Below the pieces are notes generated by a model that ran no database searches, was not told the origin of the DNA, and saw only the letters and a program-made list of their open reading frames with translations. Both the position numbers and the translations under genes were made by a program. 32,000 nucleotides of DNA from Halogeometricum borinquense DSM 11551 (GTDB lineage: Archaea; Halobacteriota; Halobacteria; Halobacteriales; Haloferacaceae): contig NC_014729.1 in NCBI RefSeq assembly GCF_000172995.2, forward strand, positions 420,001 through 452,000, given 5' to 3'. This document shows, piece by piece, positions 5,792-30,284 of the stretch. The stretch's first letter is position 1, and each line of letters starts with the position of its first letter.

Positions 5792-7117
5792 ATGGACAAC
5801 CACAACAAAGAGAGAAACGCCGCACTTGGTCGGGCGTGGACCGACGACGAATCGTGGGACTTTCTCACCCGTCTGACTCGCATCGGCAATCGGATGGGCG
5901 GCAGCAATGGCGAACGGCGTGCAGCGACACTTGTCGCCGAGGCTTTCCGGGATGCTGGCGTCTGCGATGTCCACACGGACCCGTTCGAGATGCAGGCGTG
6001 GTCTCGTGGGCGGTCGAGACTCTCGCTCGAAGCCGATGGCAGAGCGTTCGACACCGTCGCACTCCCGTACTCTCCGTCGGGTGACGTGACCGGCGAACTC
6101 GTCTACGTCGGCCACGGGACACCTGACGAGGTGGACGAACACGACGTCGCGGGGAAGATTGTCGTCGCATCAACAACGACGCCGCCCGGCGGTCGATTCG
6201 TTCACCGCATGGAGAAGTTCGGTTACGCCATCGATGCGGGCGCGGAGGCGTTCGTCTTCGTCAACCACGTCCCCGGACAACTTCCGCCGACGGGGGCGTT
6301 GAAGTTCGGCGAGGAGGCGGTCGCCCCCGCTGTCGGTGTCAGCAAGGAGTCCGGCGCGTGGCTGAAAGACGACGCGGAGGACGGTACAATGGCGCGATTG
6401 ACTGTTGAGGCTGAGACGACGACCGGGGAGAGCCAGAACGTCGTCGGCCGACTTGGTCCCGACACTGACGAGGAGATACTGTTGCTGGCTCACTACGACG
6501 CCCACGACATCGCTGAGGGGGCACTCGACAACGGGTGCGGTATCGCCGTCGTCGTCACTGCGGCGCGAATTCTCGCACAATTCGATCTCTCTGTCGGCGT
6601 CCGTATCGCAGGCGTCGGATGCGAAGAGACCGGTTTGACCGGTTCGGAACACCTTGCTGAACAACTTGCCCACGACCGAATCAAGGCCGTCGTGAACGTG
6701 GACGGCGCGGGTCGGTTCCGCGATTTGATTGCGATGACGCACACCTCAGAGGCGACAGCGTCGGTTGCCGAACGCGTCGCCGACGAGACGCGACACCCGA
6801 TTCAGATCGAAACGGAACCGCACCCGTTCAGCGATCAGTGGCCGTTCGCCCGTGCAGGCGTCCCCGCCTTGCAACTGCACAGCGACAGCGGCGAACGCGG
6901 ACGGGGGTGGGGGCATACCCACGCCGACACCCGCGATAAGGTGGACGACCGAAACATCCGCGAACACGCGATGCTCACGGCGTTACTCGTCGCAGAACTC
7001 GCTGGCGAGGACGAGGTGCCGCGCCTTGACACCGAGGAACTCGCCGCGGCGTTCCGCGATGCAGGTTTCGAGACGGGGATGCGCGCGGCGGACCTGTGGC
7101 CCGACGCGTGGGAGTGA
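5792..7117 (+). CDS. M28 family aminopeptidase
   Basis: Track ORF 5678..7117 starts at a TTG. Motifs HYDAHDIAEGALDNGCGIAVV and GCEETGLTGSEH are typical M28 metal-ligand regions. The likely start is ATG 5792 (MDNHNKERN...). Confidence 0.85.
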   Translation: MDNHNKERNAALGRAWTDDESWDFLTRLTRIGNRMGGSNGERRAATLVAEAFRDAGVCDVHTDPFEMQAWSRGRSRLSLEADGRAFDTVALPYSPSGDVTGELVYVGHGTPDEVDEHDVAGKIVVASTTTPPGGRFVHRMEKFGYAIDAGAEAFVFVNHVPGQLPPTGALKFGEEAVAPAVGVSKESGAWLKDDAEDGTMARLTVEAETTTGESQNVVGRLGPDTDEEILLLAHYDAHDIAEGALDNGCGIAVVVTAARILAQFDLSVGVRIAGVGCEETGLTGSEHLAEQLAHDRIKAVVNVDGAGRFRDLIAMTHTSEATASVAERVADETRHPIQIETEPHPFSDQWPFARAGVPALQLHSDSGERGRGWGHTHADTRDKVDDRNIREHAMLTALLVAELAGEDEVPRLDTEELAAAFRDAGFETGMRAADLWPDAWE

Positions 7118-7520: not shown

Positions 7521-8168
7521 TTAACAGATTGCTACCACGTCATCCAGCGACTCCACTTCGTACGTCGGGTTGGCGGCCAACTGGTAGTCGTCGCGGTGTG
7601 GGCGGCGGATAAATGCTGAGTCGGCACCGGCCCGGGTGGCGGCTAACACGTCCACATTACTGTCACCGACGTAGAGAACGCTCTCGGCGTCGAGTTCGTC
7701 GATAGCGCGTTCGAGGTAGTGCGGTGAGGGCTTGCGGTTCCGATAGCCTTCGACCGTCGGTGACCGACCGTACGCGACCTCGAACTGATCGCGGAGTTCG
7801 AACGCGTCGAGTATTGTTTCGACTGTTTCGTGTTGGTTGTTGCTCACCACCCCCATCGTCCGGTCGAGATCCGAAAGGACCGACACATCGTCGTACAGCG
7901 TCTTTTCACCGCGTTCGATGGCGGCGGCTTGGGCGGCCGCCGCGTTCGCCTCGCGGCGAGGCCAGAACGCTTCGTAGTCCACGTCGTGAATCTCACAAAT
8001 GCGTTGGACGCGTGCGAAACTCCCGTGGATGACGCTGTCTACGCCCTCTGTCGTCGGTTCGACGCCGAACTCCGAGAACGCCGCGCGAACCGCCTCGCGG
8101 TGGACGGTCGTCGCCGTCGGTCTCGTCAGGACGCCGTCGTTGTCGAAGATGACCGCGTCGTAGCACAT
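7521..8168 (-). CDS. HAD-superfamily hydrolase (phosphatase-like)
   Basis: Motif I VIFDNDGVL lies near the N-terminus and motif IV YVGDSNVDV near the C-terminus. Start chosen at ATG 8168 (MCYDAVIFDNDGVL); the track start at 8183 is also possible. Confidence 0.85.
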   Translation of the reverse strand: MCYDAVIFDNDGVLTRPTATTVHREAVRAAFSEFGVEPTTEGVDSVIHGSFARVQRICEIHDVDYEAFWPRREANAAAAQAAAIERGEKTLYDDVSVLSDLDRTMGVVSNNQHETVETILDAFELRDQFEVAYGRSPTVEGYRNRKPSPHYLERAIDELDAESVLYVGDSNVDVLAATRAGADSAFIRRPHRDDYQLAANPTYEVESLDDVVAIC

Positions 8169-21707: not shown

Positions 21708-21787
21708 GCGTACCGGGCGTCCGAGCACCGATTTGTTGGTTCATTTTATCCGCCGTTTCACCTCCGGAGGCTGAGTCGAGACTCCGC

Positions 21788-22324
21788 TCAGTTCTCCTCG
21801 ATGGCATCGATAACGACCATCCCGACGACGGTCAGTCGCGGATCGATGTCGCCGCGGATGTCGATACTGTATGTGTCTCGGAACGAGAACGACTCGGACG
21901 CGCTACCCAGTTTCTCTCCGGAGGGCGAAATGATGTCGTAACTGAAGGGGACGAGTGTCGTGATGAGTCGTCTGGCGAGTGCCATCGGCACGTTGTCCTC
22001 CACGACGGTAGCGACCGTCTGTCCGTCCGGTCCGAGCAGTTTGTACTCGTGTTTAAAGAACGACATCGCGCTTCGTTTGACCGAACCGACGCGCTCGCCT
22101 GTCTGCGAATCAACGATATCGTAGGCGGCGGAGATATCGAGAACGCTGTCTGCTTTTACGCGAAATCGTTCGGCTCCCGTGTCTGGGTCGGTAAAGCTGA
22201 AATCCTCTTTCAGCCGGAATTTCTTCTGTTTCGACTCCAGAATCGCGGTGTCGTTCTCGTAGATTCGGTACGCGTTCCCAACGCGTATCTTCTGTCGGAC
22301 CTCGTAGTGGCGTCCGTCGAACAT
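21788..22324 (-). CDS. LURP-one-related / tubby C-terminal-like (scramblase-fold) family protein
   Basis: 178 aa. The pattern MFDGRHYEVRQKIRVGNAYRIYEND....KQKKFRLKEDFSFTDPDTGE...I.SPSGEKLG..... resembles LOR/YxjI family proteins. This assignment is from memory of the family pattern. Confidence 0.65.
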   Translation of the reverse strand: MFDGRHYEVRQKIRVGNAYRIYENDTAILESKQKKFRLKEDFSFTDPDTGAERFRVKADSVLDISAAYDIVDSQTGERVGSVKRSAMSFFKHEYKLLGPDGQTVATVVEDNVPMALARRLITTLVPFSYDIISPSGEKLGSASESFSFRDTYSIDIRGDIDPRLTVVGMVVIDAIEEN

Positions 22325-22479
22325 GAGTCTTGTCTGGGTGTTCTCCGCTTTCGGGGATAGCGTTTGGGCTGTGCGGGCAGATTTATCAATCTCTCTCGCG
22401 TATTATTTCCCCTGCGTCGGACAATTTGGACGGCGAGCGAAACCGTCGCTTGGGTCTGCACGCCGACGCGGAGGTTACA

Positions 22480-22755
22480 ATGCCACTCATCGAATTCAAC
22501 TTCGGACGCGAACGCACCGACGATACCGCTGACACCGGCAAAGAGCAAGTCGAGATACCCATCGATGACGAGTCGTCGTCCAAGTCGTCTTCGACCGGAC
22601 GCAAACTGCTCCGTACGACGGTCCTTCTGGCACTTGTCGCCGCCGCTGGCTATCTCCTCTATCGCCGCGCGACAGCGGCCGACGACTCGGAGTTCGCGGA
22701 AATAGTGTTCGAAGACGAGACGGCGGAGGCGGGAACCGAATCGACCGACGAGTGA
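22480..22755 (+). CDS. small single-pass membrane protein with acidic tails (91 aa)
   Basis: MPLIEFNFGRERTDD...RKLLRTTVLLALVAAAGYLLYRRA...EDETAEAGTESTDE. ATG verified at 22480. The track ORF starts further upstream, at 22330. Confidence 0.55.
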   Translation: MPLIEFNFGRERTDDTADTGKEQVEIPIDDESSSKSSSTGRKLLRTTVLLALVAAAGYLLYRRATAADDSEFAEIVFEDETAEAGTESTDE

Positions 22756-22986
22756 GCGACGGCACGCACGTACTCCGCGGCGATCGCATCGTTCAGTACC
22801 TGATTCAAGCAAAACGCAAACGCTTGGTGCTATGTTTCGGCGGTGCCTGCTGAGAAGCTTCGAAATGATCGGATACCGAAGAAACAATTCCCCAGAGAAT
22901 ACAGGAACTCAGACGATTATCGCCCGGGAAACTGCCTGAAAACCGTAGTGGCAAGCACGAACGCGGGGCCGAGAATACAGCGAGTG

Positions 22987-23463
22987 ATGCAGATGTCGAG
23001 CAATGATATATTCCACATAATCAGATGGGAAAACTATGATTCGTATCGAAAAACGATCGAAAGTGTCACACTTGGAGCGGTAGATGAGAGCGGAAATAAC
23101 ATGCTCCACGTTGCTGCATCACGTGGAAAGATAGACATTGGATCTGATCTGATAGAAAGAGGTATTTTCCTAAATAGGCAAGGGAAGGAGGGGAAAACGC
23201 CGCTCCATTACGCGTTGGAGATGGGCGACAATGAGATGGCAACGCTCCTGATTTCAGCGGGAGCAGATGTCACGGTTACCGATGATTATGGAAATCAACC
23301 GCTGTGGAGTGCCGTGATGAACGAGGAAGTTGACGACAACGTAATTCGACTACTCGTCCAACACGGCGCAGATCCAGTCAATCAGAACGAAGCTGGCAAG
23401 TCTCCCCTAGATGTCGCTCGTCGCCGAGAGGAAGAAACTCTCATTGAGATATTCACGGACTGA
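22987..23463 (+). CDS. ankyrin-repeat protein (3-4 ANK repeats)
   Basis: Repeats: GNNMLHVAASRGKIDIGSDLIERG, GKTPLHYALEMGDNEMATLLISAGADV, GNQPLWSAV...VIRLLVQHGADP, GKSPLDVARRR. Start taken at ATG 22987 (MQMSSND...); the track's GTG at 22843 is an alternative. GC is clearly below its surroundings (for example 23/60 in 22981-23040 and 26/60 in 23101-23160). Confidence 0.85.
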   Translation: MQMSSNDIFHIIRWENYDSYRKTIESVTLGAVDESGNNMLHVAASRGKIDIGSDLIERGIFLNRQGKEGKTPLHYALEMGDNEMATLLISAGADVTVTDDYGNQPLWSAVMNEEVDDNVIRLLVQHGADPVNQNEAGKSPLDVARRREEETLIEIFTD

Positions 23464-23490
23464 CATCCTCCTGCTCTAGAAGACGTCCCG

Positions 23491-23575
23491 AGAAGTTAGA
23501 AGAGAGATTGGACAGAATCGATAGCTGAATCAAATATTGTGGAGTGTATTTTGAATGCGATTGCGATTCTGTCGT
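23491..23575 (+). repeat. 85-bp direct repeat, copy 1 (3-prime gene stub + T-run + short-ORF start)
   Basis: Aligns to 23977-24062 with 3 substitutions and 1 single-base indel. It encodes ...KLEERLDRIDS-stop in a frame open only from 23448 with no start codon, so it is a gene remnant. Confidence 0.9.
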
Positions 23576-23717
23576 AAGCAGCCAGCAGTTCATTACTATA
23601 ATCCGCAAACAAAAAACAACGTTATGATATATCCTGATGGAGAATTCTGGTCGGCATGGAAACTCAGCGGGGAGCAAGAAAAGCACCTGCTTACCACAGG
23701 AGATCTCTGAGAACAAC

Positions 23718-24014
23718 ATGGCTGAAAAAACAATAATTAAAAAATATATCAATCCCCTTCAAAGATACACTGAGGGAGAGATGTCCGCTTCAGAACTCTC
23801 CACGGGATACTTAGAAGAGTTCAAAAATGAATCTCAGGGATTTTCTGAAGAAACATACCAAATATTGCAGAATATGTTTAGAAAATCTGATGCATATTGT
23901 GAACCGGAGATACGAGAAGATGTGAGAGGGAGCATTGGTGAGCAGGAACTGCTGGAGGCAGCAACCCAGACTATCAAGAAGTTAGAAGAAAGATTAGAAA
24001 GAATCGATAGCTGA
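23718..24014 (+). CDS. colicin-D-immunity (ImmD)-like / colicin-like self-protection immunity family protein (98 aa), tentative
   Basis: MAEKTIIKKYINPLQRYTEGEMSASELSTGYLEEFKNESQGFSEETYQILQNMFRKSDAYCEPEIREDVRGSIGEQELLEAATQTIKKLEERLERIDS. The pattern G-x-[IM]-[ST]-A-x-E-[FL], then L..[LM]F...D/E.[FY].P[DE]..R....I.E.EL....L..L, matches my memory of ImmD-type immunity proteins. ATG verified at 23718. The most AT-rich coding region in the window. Confidence 0.55.
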   Translation: MAEKTIIKKYINPLQRYTEGEMSASELSTGYLEEFKNESQGFSEETYQILQNMFRKSDAYCEPEIREDVRGSIGEQELLEAATQTIKKLEERLERIDS

Positions 24015-24062
24015 ATCAAATATTGTGGAGTGTATTTTGATATGCGATTGCGATTCTGTCGT
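23977..24062 (+). repeat. 85-bp direct repeat, copy 2 (overlaps the true 3-prime end of the ImmD-like gene)
   Basis: See copy 1. The low-GC tract ends exactly at the end of this copy (22/60 G+C in 24001-24060 versus 37/60 in 24061-24120). Confidence 0.9.
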
Positions 24063-24215
24063 GGCGGGACCAATCAGCGAGACCAACACGGAGTCGATGG
24101 GTCCAACTCCTCGTTCACCCACTAAGCTGACATCTGCCTCATTCTACCACCACTCTGAACACTGCCCACGTCGATAACCCGAACGTCTTTCAGCGCTGCC
24201 CCCTTTCTTCCGACG

Positions 24216-26808: not shown

Positions 26809-28341
26809 ATGACAGATGCCCCACCGACCGACGAGGGCTGGTTCGCCCTACACGACTTCCGCACTGTGGACTGGGACGCGTGGCGCGACGCGCCCGAACA
26901 CGAACGGAACCGCGCCGTCGGCGAGGGTGTCGAGTATCTCCGCACCCACGAGGCCGTCGAGGATGCAGAAGACGGAACGTCTGCCGTCTTCTCTATCCTC
27001 GGGCACAAGGCGGACTTGCTCGTCATCCACTTCCGCCCGACGCTAGACGCGCTCTCGCGTGCGGAACGGCAGTTCGAGCGAACTGCGCTCGCTGCGTACA
27101 CCGAACAGGCAACCTCGTACGTTTCGGTTACCGAGGTGTCCGGATACGTTTCTCAGGATTACTTCGAGGAGGGCGAGGACGCCGACGTAGACGAGGGGCT
27201 TCGCCGCTACATCGAAGGAAAACTCGAACCCGACGTGCCGGACGACCAGTACGTCGCATTCTACCCCATGTCGAAACGCCGCGGCGAGAAGTACAACTGG
27301 TACGACCTCTCGTTCGAGGAACGCGCCGAGATGATGTCTGTCCACGGCGATACCGGCCGCGAGTACGCCGGGAAGATAAAGCAGGTCATCGCCTCGTCCG
27401 TCGGATTCGACGACTTCGAGTGGGGCGTGACGCTGTTCTCCGAGGACCCCACGGAGATCAAGAACATCGTCTACGACATGCGGTTCGACGATGTCTCCTC
27501 GAAGTACGGCGAGTTCGGCCAGTTCTACATCGGACGTCGGTTCCCACCTGCGGACTTGGGTGCGTACCTCGACGGCGAGTCGGTTCCGACGAGCGAACAC
27601 GAGACGGCGCACGAACACGGCGCCCACGGCGAGGCTCACGGCCACGCGCACGGTGACTCTCCGCACGGCGGCAGCGACCACGGCGGGGCACACGGCGGCG
27701 GTGGCGGTCACGCACACGGCGACTCTCCGCACGGCGAATCCGACGAGGACGACGCCTCCGGCGACATCCGCGGCGAACTCGAAGATCTGAACATCTACGC
27801 AGGTCAGCCCCACGGCGAGGACGTGTACGCGACGGTTCTCTACTCAGAGGCCGACTCCGACGAGTTGTTCGAGGAAGTCGAGGGTCTGCGCGGCAACTTC
27901 GACCACTACGGCACGCACGTCAAGACGGCTGTCTACGAGGCCAAAGAACGCGGACGGTCGGCCGTCGTCTCTATCTGGGACACGCAGTCGGCGGCGGAGA
28001 CGGCCGCCGGGTTCCTCTCGGAACTTCCGGGTATCGTCTCACGCGCCGGTGAGGAGTCTGGATTCGGGACGATGGGAATGTTCTACACGGTCAAATCCGA
28101 GCACCGCGAGGATTTCGTCGAGAAGTTCGACACCGTCGGTGACGTACTCGCCGATACCGACGGCCACCAGGAGACCGACCTGATGGTCAACATCGAAGAC
28201 GAAGACGACATGTTCATCGCCAGTCAGTGGAACGCACAGGAGGACGCGATGGAGTTCTTCCGCTCGGACGCCTTCCGCGACACCGTCCAGTGGGGCCGCG
28301 ACATCCTCGCGGACCGACCACGCCACGTCTTCCTCGCGTAG
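26809..28341 (+). CDS. pitA: chlorite-dismutase-like (HemQ/Cld family) domain fused to an antibiotic-biosynthesis-monooxygenase (ABM) domain through a His-rich linker; PitA-type protein
   Basis: N-terminal Cld-like half (GWFALHDFRTVDWDAW..., YVAFYPMSKRR, WYDLSFEERAEMM). C-terminal ABM-like half (GMFYTVKSEHREDFVEKF...FIASQWNAQEDAMEFFRSDAFRD). The linker holds 13 His in 45 residues. The same architecture is described for Haloferax volcanii PitA. Confidence 0.85.
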   Translation: MTDAPPTDEGWFALHDFRTVDWDAWRDAPEHERNRAVGEGVEYLRTHEAVEDAEDGTSAVFSILGHKADLLVIHFRPTLDALSRAERQFERTALAAYTEQATSYVSVTEVSGYVSQDYFEEGEDADVDEGLRRYIEGKLEPDVPDDQYVAFYPMSKRRGEKYNWYDLSFEERAEMMSVHGDTGREYAGKIKQVIASSVGFDDFEWGVTLFSEDPTEIKNIVYDMRFDDVSSKYGEFGQFYIGRRFPPADLGAYLDGESVPTSEHETAHEHGAHGEAHGHAHGDSPHGGSDHGGAHGGGGGHAHGDSPHGESDEDDASGDIRGELEDLNIYAGQPHGEDVYATVLYSEADSDELFEEVEGLRGNFDHYGTHVKTAVYEAKERGRSAVVSIWDTQSAAETAAGFLSELPGIVSRAGEESGFGTMGMFYTVKSEHREDFVEKFDTVGDVLADTDGHQETDLMVNIEDEDDMFIASQWNAQEDAMEFFRSDAFRDTVQWGRDILADRPRHVFLA

Positions 28342-29882: not shown

Positions 29883-30284
29883 TCAGGACGACTTTTCCCG
29901 GACGAACTCCGCTTCTGCGGTGTCATCGTCTTGGGTTCGGAGCAGTTGCTCGACTCGGCGTTCGAACTCTGCCTCGTCTATTTTTCCCTCGGCATAGCGT
30001 TCGCGGAGACGACCGAGAGCATCGTCATGCTGGTCTGCATTTGCTCGGCGTGGCGAGTCGAGTTGATTCGCTTCGGTCATAGCTCTCGTGAAGTCGGTCA
30101 GACGGACGTACGGGAGCGTGAGCAATGCAGTGATGATGAAGGTCCCGACGAAACCTGCGACGGGATGCTCACCGTTGATGAGTGCAATGAGAGAAACAAC
30201 GCCGGCGACGACGGCGGAGAACGTCCACGGCCGCGTGCGGATGAACTCGTCGAAGTCGAACCCGTCGGTGGAGGGCGAAGACAT
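29883..30284 (-). CDS. membrane protein with C-terminal SHOCT domain (paralog 2)
   Basis: Two hydrophobic helices (WTFSAVVAGVVSLIALI, VAGFVGTFIITALLTLPYV), then LGRLRERYAEGKIDEAEFERRVEQLL. Confidence 0.75.
   Translation of the reverse strand: MSSPSTDGFDFDEFIRTRPWTFSAVVAGVVSLIALINGEHPVAGFVGTFIITALLTLPYVRLTDFTRAMTEANQLDSPRRANADQHDDALGRLRERYAEGKIDEAEFERRVEQLLRTQDDDTAEAEFVREKSS

Follow-up and report, generated by a model that had tools for sequence, protein, structure and literature searches.

The locus

It was in Halogeometricum borinquense DSM 11551 that an archaeal weapon akin to type VI secretion systems (T6SS) was first shown to kill its neighbours (PMC11566945). This report concerns a low-GC tract of its genome and, within that tract, two near-identical direct repeats of about 85 bp. 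Positions refer to the window, the whole 32-kb stretch of DSM 11551 DNA (AOHT01000033) that was analysed, unless another locus is named. The tract is what is left, without its toxin, of a polymorphic toxin-immunity locus that belongs to the DUF4157 (eCIS_core) type. DSM 11551 keeps two predicted orphan immunity modules there, each behind the 3' stub of its own toxin.

The equivalent site was retrieved in four other H. borinquense genomes by exact-protein look-ups: CP048739 (L004), CP050274 (L005), JAXCMF01 (L007) and RZHH01 (L008). Further loci used for comparison are a second one in DSM 11551 (L064), one in Haloferax sp. S1W (L068, CP172595) and two from hypersaline metagenomes (L002 and L003). 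The parts of the insertion in the window are as follows.

22784–22839, + strand: left edge of the insertion, upstream sequence common to the toxin-bearing strain; start approximate
22840–22989, + strand: decayed 3' stub of a DUF4157-type GH-E (HNH/EndoVII) toxin, about 50 codons, frameshifted
22990–23463, + strand: predicted orphan ankyrin-repeat immunity gene (Imm-ank type), matching Pfam Ank_2 and related models
23464–23490, + strand: tail of the GH-E/ankyrin module, 27 nt, with module end ...GACGTCCC
23491–23575, + strand: repeat copy 1, an ImmD relic (codons 87–98 and stop, 23493–23528; tblastn finds ImmD residues 88–98) followed by a 47-nt tail
23511–23520 and 23564–23573, + strand: inverted-repeat arms of copy 1, inside the tail-bearing element
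23576–23710, + strand: 3' stub of a colicin-D-family tRNase, last 44 codons and stop, without the K-x-K-H catalytic motif
23718–24014, + strand: intact orphan ImmD gene, 98 aa, with its ATG 7 nt past the toxin-stub stop; Pfam PF09204
23977–24062, + strand: repeat copy 2, made up of the genuine ImmD 3' end (to 24014) and the 48-nt module tail (24015–24062)
23997–24006 and 24051–24060: inverted-repeat arms of copy 2
24063–24176, + strand: rest of the insertion, 114 nt of normal GC, 93.9% identical to L004

The whole segment from about 22784 to 24176 is specific to H. borinquense. Its left edge begins just past the last stretch held in common with H. limi (..TCCGCGGC), the sequence leading up to the toxin stub (21741–22839) is 95.8% identical to L004 8771–9879, and conserved host DNA, the promoter region of the M50 protease gene, restarts at 24177. 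The end of the low-GC module is nested within this segment, the 48-nt tail having a GC content of 0.35 and the following 114 nt one of 0.56. A sequence-only reading of this DNA had let the low-GC tract end with copy 2, which holds, as the step lies at about 24062, but the segment missing from related species extends to 24176.

The same reading had described the repeat itself, and alignment bears out that description. The copies are 85 and 86 nt long; 3 substitutions and a single 1-nt indel separate them, and they have a 41-nt block and a 21-nt block fully in common. Within the window both blocks are confined to the repeat, also when 3 mismatches are tolerated, and shuffled sequences gave zero matches; the copy number in the window is two. 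Copy 2 takes in the final 12 codons of the Colicin_immun (PF09204) gene, here called ImmD, with its stop, and then 48 nt, where the end of an ImmD-like gene and about 48 nt had been expected. Copy 1 begins 27 nt past the stop of the ankyrin gene and in another frame; it reads ..EKLEERLDRIDS-stop, and this frame is open only from 23448, again as had been stated.

The colicin D module

Between copy 1 and ImmD lies a toxin stub (23576–23710, 135 nt) that the earlier reading had overlooked. It gives a weak Pfam match to Colicin_D, over profile positions 46–82 of 84, and a small profile returned colicin D structures as its four best matches in the PDB. Of its 118 homologues, most, with lengths from 47 to 1804 aa, have the match at the extreme C-terminus, a hallmark of the C-terminal domain of a polymorphic toxin. 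A full toxin exists in H. borinquense itself: P0123 (WP_163488204, 399 aa) joins eCIS_core/DUF4157 to a full Colicin_D domain (69.6 bits), its gene sits at the equivalent chromosomal site in CP048739 with ImmD directly downstream, and its residues 356–399 are 97.7% identical to the stub in the window. The C-terminal domain of P0005/P0123 aligns with colicin D (1V74_A) at E 1.6e-17, with ..KFKHANDFGI.. set against ..KYKHAGDFGI.., the catalytic K-H region. Because the stub begins past this motif, it is predicted to be inactive. The eCIS_core/DUF4157 domain of P0123 marks it as putative cargo of the T6SS-like contractile injection system (CIS) of the species.

The ImmD gene in the window scores 34.4 bits against PF09204, for which the cut-off is 22, and is 96% identical to the ImmD behind the full toxin in L004. 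It starts 7 nt after the stop of the stub, or of the toxin, in both genomes, and RefSeq likewise calls a product of 98 aa. An AlphaFold model shows four helices (confidence score, pLDDT, 84.6); a sequence comparison with solved ImmD gave zero matches.

ImmD homologues with 52–55% identity lie behind inactivated colicin D (ColD) toxins in two metagenome loci, L002 (2608–3253) and L003 (492–851). The ColD toxin of L002 is frameshifted after its DUF4157 part, that of L003 has an in-frame stop at the GTY codon, and L002 also carries SUKH immunity genes. An open reading frame (ORF) of 38–51 aa upstream of ImmD at three loci was considered as a conserved small gene and rejected once the upstream frames were read, because a full ColD domain turned up there, frameshifted in L002 and nonsense-mutated in L003, and the listing of ORFs starts at the first ATG. 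A metagenome scan with an ImmD alignment gave 4 loci, none of them close. In Halogeometricum sp. wsp3 (QKMU01000001, L006 9965–10261) a 298-bp ColD fragment, 94% identical to L004 10962–11245, stands without ImmD in an unrelated region beside pleolipovirus-like genes (HRPV envelope, VP3).

The GH-E/ankyrin module and the shared toxin body

The ankyrin gene also follows a toxin remnant. By tblastn, toxin residues 379–411 are found at 22864–22961 in two frames (E 4.7e-7), and over 22864–23459 the DNA is 83.8% identical to L068 4870–5467 of Haloferax sp. S1W, a segment that runs from the end of the toxin gene through the ankyrin gene. Two homologues of the ankyrin protein, with 80% and 58% identity, come from L068 (Haloferax sp. 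S1W) and from L064 in DSM 11551 itself; each is encoded right behind a DUF4157+GH-E toxin, the ankyrin gene starting 2–5 nt after the toxin gene. Ankyrin repeats (Imm-ank) are listed among the immunity proteins of HNH-fold toxins (Zhang et al., PMC3482391). This evidence identifies the ankyrin gene as the predicted immunity gene of the GH-E toxin; both the stub and this role of the ankyrin protein had been missed by the sequence-only reading.

Automatic annotation masks such orphans here, as the ORFs of both immunity genes are extended through toxin stubs. In the earlier annotation the ankyrin ORF runs from 22843 to 23463 (206 aa), an artefactual extension across the GH-E stub, and the ImmD ORF from 23637 to 24014 (125 aa). 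The likely true starts are the ATG at 22990 for the ankyrin gene and the ATG at 23718 for ImmD.

The toxins of the two modules have their N-terminal region of about 280 codons in common, up to a VHVQR motif, and are unrelated beyond it. In this region the DNA identity of the ColD toxin gene is 78% to L068 and 88–92% to L064, with 73% in protein; the homology ends at about L004 10836–10843 (VHVQR), and there the GC content drops from about 0.6 to about 0.4. The domain combination is eCIS_core with Colicin_D in P0123 and eCIS_core with GH-E in L068 and L064. A shared N-terminal region with alternative C-terminal toxin domains is the architecture of polymorphic toxins. Within the window only the two C-terminal toxin stubs persist, neither with the conserved N-terminal region. 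In each module, the ColD stub with ImmD and the GH-E stub with the ankyrin gene, an intact immunity ORF stands behind a 5'-truncated toxin remnant, as in orphan modules known elsewhere. Of the corresponding toxins, ColD is intact at the same site in CP048739, and GH-E toxins with related ankyrin partners are encoded in L064 and L068, not at this site.

The second locus in DSM 11551 (L064 4099–4998) lies on the same contig about 50 kb away and holds a DUF4157+GH-E toxin with an ankyrin partner. This toxin is N-terminally short (299 aa) and has a tandem duplication of 30 aa (AFNHGEYDPSSAEGQHILAHELAHVRQQTG, twice) inside eCIS_core. In Haloferax sp. S1W, L068 5001–8219 carries a main DUF4157+GH-E toxin followed by ankyrin, SUKH, ankyrin, ankyrin, DUF7957 and Colicin_immun genes. 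Fragments of the conserved toxin N-terminal region recur there at 6033–6152 and 7716–7812 as direct repeats of the main gene (75–79% identity), so that two orphan immunity genes of the array are preceded by pieces of the conserved region.

One site in five strains

The site is flanked on the left by the genes for LysRS, a LOR-family protein and a protein of 91/94 aa, and on the right by those for the M50 protease and PadR. At this one site the five H. borinquense strains have five differing structures.

CP048739 (L004): full toxin and ImmD
CP050274 (L005): ankyrin cassette over 570 bp of its length, decayed 72-nt toxin remnant, ColD stub from codon 89, ImmD
DSM 11551 (window): GH-E stub, ankyrin gene, copy 1, ColD stub, ImmD, copy 2
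JAXCMF01 (L007): ankyrin cassette, one 85-bp element, 142 nt of its own sequence, host flank; neither ColD stub nor ImmD
RZHH01 (L008): 23298–24071 deleted between two AATCA pentamers (microhomology)

A comparison of cassette content between strains had been suggested as a check, and the content does vary. In H. limi, H. pallidum, Halopelagius and Halobellus the site is empty; in H. limi just 12 nt separate the stop of the 91-aa gene from the conserved M50 promoter region. A synteny scan of a genome collection with the M50 protease as query returned zero H. borinquense loci.

The flanks of L005 are 99.9% identical to those of L004, and its ankyrin segment agrees with the window at 569 of 569 positions; L007 has flanks that are 99.9% L004-like and an ankyrin cassette 96% identical to that of the window; L008 agrees with the window at 99.5% identity. 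A single 85-bp element is present in L004 and in L005, at the end of ImmD, and copy 2 is 100% identical to it in both. In L007 the left joint of the insertion and the joint between ankyrin cassette and stub match those of the window. The L007-specific stretch of 142 nt (6735–6876) is GC-rich and lies between the 85-bp element and the equivalent of window position 24072. In its place the window, L004 and L005 carry only GGCGGGACC, and the deletion in L008 likewise ends at 24071. Neither the 142-nt stretch nor the 114-nt right segment had a match among the other fetched sequences.

In L005 the ankyrin cassette is joined straight to toxin sequence, and the repeat is absent from that joint. The toxin remnant there shows a partial duplication of 24 nt as well as two deletions, of 1 nt and of 9 nt. 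A crossover with a window-type donor at an ATTG[G/A]ACAG similarity was considered as the source of this joint and rejected, as the preceding 17 nt do not fit; the simpler reading is that the joint would be a 24-nt slippage duplication of toxin sequence.

Origin of the repeat

We consider the 85-bp repeat to be the scar of a toxin-immunity module replacement, with a probability of roughly 0.8: copy 1 would be the tail of a second, diverged ImmD gene, an allele or a paralogue, that was overwritten by the GH-E/ankyrin module. Homology of the window to the toxin of L004 starts at 23572–23576, exactly at the right end of copy 1, and the joint reads ..TCTGTCGT|AAGCAGCC in the window and ..GTATCAT|AAGCAGCC in the intact toxin gene. 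The joint sequence implies that copy 1 is an ImmD end with its tail, illegitimately joined to codon 89 of ColD.

Copy 1 and the element of L007 have the diagnostic bases G, G and C in common at three sites (signature GAGAGATTGGACAGAATCGATAGC). The L007 element occupies the place of the ImmD end in other strains and is followed by the 142-nt strain-specific stretch and then by the shared flank. The shared allele and the position in L007 imply that the stub travels with the ankyrin module and marks the ImmD gene which that module overwrote. The differences that copy 1 and L007 share against the live ImmD fall on 3 third-codon positions in 38 coding nt, with 0 in the 48-nt tail (Fisher p 0.006, third positions against tail). 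This pattern fits a once-functional, diverged ImmD copy with a crossover inside the element, rather than the decay of a fresh duplicate. Of the two explanations put forward from sequence alone, the first, that the ankyrin cassette wrote over an ImmD paralogue of which the 3' stub survives, was essentially right, as the same joint in L007 and the restriction of the differences to third-codon positions indicate.

A possible history runs as follows. The GH-E/ankyrin module, on joining in, would have overwritten most of the second ImmD gene, and copy 2 would be the plain end of the surviving ImmD module. The exchanges may have come about by homologous recombination, either in the conserved toxin N-terminal region or in flanking DNA, with illegitimate joining and deletion besides. 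Once present, the two copies would be a substrate for homologous recombination that deletes the 486-bp unit of stub and ImmD, and the structure of JAXCMF01 is compatible with such a deletion, being the one it should produce. The order of events may have followed either of two paths. In the first (path A) a chromosome of the L007 type would have been joined to one of the L004 type at tail end|codon 89. In the second (path B), a case of serial displacement, toxin-ColD'-ImmD' would have been placed before the stub and ImmD, then GH-E/ankyrin would have followed, then the toxin would have been deleted, and L007 would have arisen at the end by homologous deletion between the two copies. The L007 element has the bases of copy 1 on its left and the extra T of copy 2 on its right, which is compatible with the deletion of path B.

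It could also be that there never was a second ImmD, and that copy 1 is a templated patch: during microhomology-mediated break-induced replication, synthesis would have jumped to a new template, the 3' end of ImmD some 400 bp downstream, copied 85 nt and returned at codon 89 of ColD. L005 lends this some colour, since the same ankyrin end is joined there to a toxin remnant of similar length (72 against 85 nt) whose duplication and deletions are marks of error-prone repair. At equal distance from the joint, moreover, a 9-mer of copy 1 (ATTGGACAG) resembles that of L005 (ATTGAACAG), where copy 2 has ATTAGAAAG, so that 2 of the 3 substitutions in copy 1 agree with the toxin remnant. However, in the reading frame of ImmD each of the 3 substitutions hits a third codon position, as in a gene diverging under selection. 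L007, moreover, has the same stub allele in an ankyrin cassette diverged by 4% and in another background, so the stub is old and moves with the ankyrin module, and a patch would require L007 to be a later deletion product. We regard the patch as unlikely.

A functional reading of the tail was considered too. The sequence-only reading had noted an 8-bp inverted repeat, which proves longer, with 10 bp in copy 1 (GACAGAATCG / CGATTCTGTC) and 9 of 10 in copy 2. A terminator, or a hairpin with a regulatory role, kept by selection after each immunity gene, might explain why the hairpin arms are conserved and why the tails of copies 1 and 2 are identical bar the indel, whereas the coding parts differ. 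The T-run taken earlier for a likely terminator is only four T, and a consensus terminator scan found nothing at the repeat; folded as RNA of the + (transcribed) strand, the copies are no better than shuffles (z −1.4 and +0.2). The terminator interpretation of the tail was rejected on these grounds. Folding, which had been suggested as a check, gave a positive answer for single-stranded DNA only, and a modest one: the hairpin beats shuffles with z −3.1 and −2.3, and across the three variants of the element the values are −3.1, −2.3 and −2.5. An Rfam scan of the window has tRNA-Lys as its sole match. Nor does the distribution fit a maintained element, as copy 1 stands behind a dead stub and no gene, the ankyrin gene has a different tail, and the tail is not conserved after ImmD homologues elsewhere. 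A functional non-coding element is accordingly the origin to which we give next to no credence.

Several observations do weigh against our preferred explanation, that of an overwritten ImmD, and some of them favour a defined site instead. The GH-E/ankyrin module ends at the identical nucleotide in two differing joints (at its end L005 identity and L007 homology both cease, with differing sequences beyond), and the ImmD module end has two or three differing partners, ...TCTGTCGT being joined to the 114-nt right segment (R114), to ColD codon 89 and to the L007-specific stretch. Random illegitimate recombination does not predict such repeated ends. The ImmD module end also coincides with the GC step, 2 nt beyond the 3' arm of the 10-bp inverted repeat, which all three variants retain. 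The putative second ImmD gene is represented solely by its relic, and a full-length ImmD with the G/G/C signature of the stub was found in none of the databases searched. Paths A and B need an equal number of illegitimate events, and a window-type-first and an L007-type-first order both fit. A Foldseek search of the ImmD model against the PDB did not recover solved ImmD and had no significant match. In favour of a scar, on the other hand, further copies of the element, a search for which had been suggested, are absent from the window, from viral contigs (exact-pattern scan), from a plasmid collection (blastn of the whole island) and from 68 fetched loci, where its sole matches are in H. borinquense strains at this very locus; the remainder of the DSM 11551 genome was not scanned.

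On the reused joints one may base the proposal that the 85-bp element, or the module ends in general, form a site at which a recombinase inserts and excises immunity cassettes, as at attC in integrons or in orphan-immunity arrays associated with a recombinase; a recombination site of integron type was the second explanation proposed from sequence alone. Like integron cassettes, the ImmD unit has short imperfect inverted repeats at its 3' end, and a direct repeat of this end flanks a small promoter-less gene unit. Against this, no integrase (IntI), transposase or other recombinase was found in the checked ORFs of the window or in the genes called within the surrounding 20 kb, and the GTTRRRY core (R''/R') is absent on inspection. 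Only one kind of cassette carries the element: the 27-nt tail of the adjoining ankyrin module has no hairpin (single-stranded DNA fold z +1.3) and no similarity to the ImmD tail. The element is confined to this locus among the loci compared and occurs once per ImmD module in other strains; the sequence downstream of the 52%-identity ImmD homologues in L002 and L003 is unrelated; the junction partners have no common motif; the L007 tail bears 4 private changes; and in CP050274 the ankyrin cassette was joined to the toxin without the repeat. The integron-like explanation therefore found no support in the tests made, and we hold a recombinase site of this kind to be very unlikely. We think it just as improbable that the DUF4157 module ends (...GACGTCCC after ankyrin, and ...TCTGTCGT after ImmD with its terminal 10-bp hairpin) are discrete reusable joints, at which a mechanism encoded elsewhere, independent of a recombinase or acting in trans, would mobilise immunity cassettes as units.

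Relation to known systems

The closest parallel is with the orphan immunity arrays of the Vibrio cholerae T6SS, for which a displacement model with homologous recombination and rare illegitimate joins has been put forward (Kirchberger et al. 2017, PMC5361080). There, as at the H. borinquense site, effector-immunity modules are swapped between strains by homologous recombination in conserved flanks with rare illegitimate joins, the old immunity gene is retained while the effector is lost or truncated, content differs by strain at one locus, and the whole has an integron-like look without an integrase. Here, in contrast, the host is an archaeon and the effector is putative DUF4157/eCIS_core cargo of a T6SS-like contractile injection system. 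Its locus is remote from the cluster that encodes the injection system, amid housekeeping genes, and the DSM 11551 site retains no effector at all. Besides toxin stubs, an immunity-gene stub is preserved, and it is this stub that gives rise to the 85-bp direct repeat.

An analogy to orphan CdiI and Rhs modules had been drawn from the sequence and was apt, since cassette content varies between strains. As in Rhs-CT/rhsI and cdiA-CT/cdiI of the contact-dependent inhibition (CDI) systems (PMC5361080, PMC3482391), a conserved N-terminal body carries variable C-terminal toxin domains of other GC content, with the cognate immunity gene right behind, pieces of 5'-truncated toxin genes ahead of the orphan immunity genes, and a short conserved motif at the switch point (here ..VHVQR). 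Unlike those systems, the H. borinquense locus has no Rhs/YD repeats, no CdiA and no CdiB. The stubs in the window also lack the conserved N-terminal region, pieces of which are kept in the Haloferax sp. S1W array, so re-activation by recombination with a main toxin gene would not be expected at this locus.

With colicin D and its ImmD (PDB 1V74, 1TFK, 1TFO) the sister-strain toxin agrees in its C-terminus, including K-H-A-x-D-F-G, and in the PF09204 neighbour gene. It differs in that the domain is here the C-terminus of an archaeal DUF4157 effector and not of a plasmid-borne colicin, that the window holds its last 44 residues only, and that ImmD is too diverged for a match to solved ImmD by sequence or Foldseek. 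In DSM 11551 itself five DUF4157 proteins are secreted in a CIS-dependent manner (Sci Adv 2024, PMC11566945). Two of the five (Hbor_02990 and Hbor_38900) are toxic in Haloferax volcanii, and co-expression of the downstream gene prevents toxicity (PMC11566945). The locus described here (ImmD = Hbor_04710, with the ankyrin gene as upstream neighbour) is in the same strain and is not mentioned there; it would have escaped a search for toxins, as the strain studied has only immunity genes at this site.

Implications

Archaea, too, thus have orphan immunity genes behind toxin stubs, as described for loci of Rhs, CDI and the Vibrio T6SS. For the repeat itself the outcome is deflationary, a recombination scar, with nothing found that makes it a new mobile-element site. 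The value of the locus lies more in the strain series, and in the predictions it allows as to who kills whom, than in the repeat. At one effector-immunity site the five strains would, going by gene content, be armed, disarmed but immune, doubly immune, or stripped. If expressed, the orphan ImmD and ankyrin genes would protect DSM 11551 from sister strains that fire the ColD effector (CP048739) and from GH-E effectors. CP048739 bears the ColD effector, to which DSM 11551 and CP050274 should then be resistant and JAXCMF01 and RZHH01 sensitive.

Other features of the region

Between the LysRS and LOR-family genes, L004 (7286–8756) and L007 (3404–4874) carry a TnpB/Cas12f-like gene (PF07282) with a 44-aa partner. 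The insertion point corresponds to about 21741–21744 of the window, and the pair is absent from DSM 11551, L005 and L008. Near SHOCT-domain genes, 30181–30260 of the window has no alignment with L004 or L005, which indicates that the strains differ there by an indel or a replaced stretch. At 27604–27736, inside a 510-aa Chlor_dismutase+ABM ORF, stands a pair of direct repeats of about 70 nt with 80% identity; the peptide they encode is rich in His, Gly and Asp (HGxAHGDSPHGxSD), and every strain compared has them.

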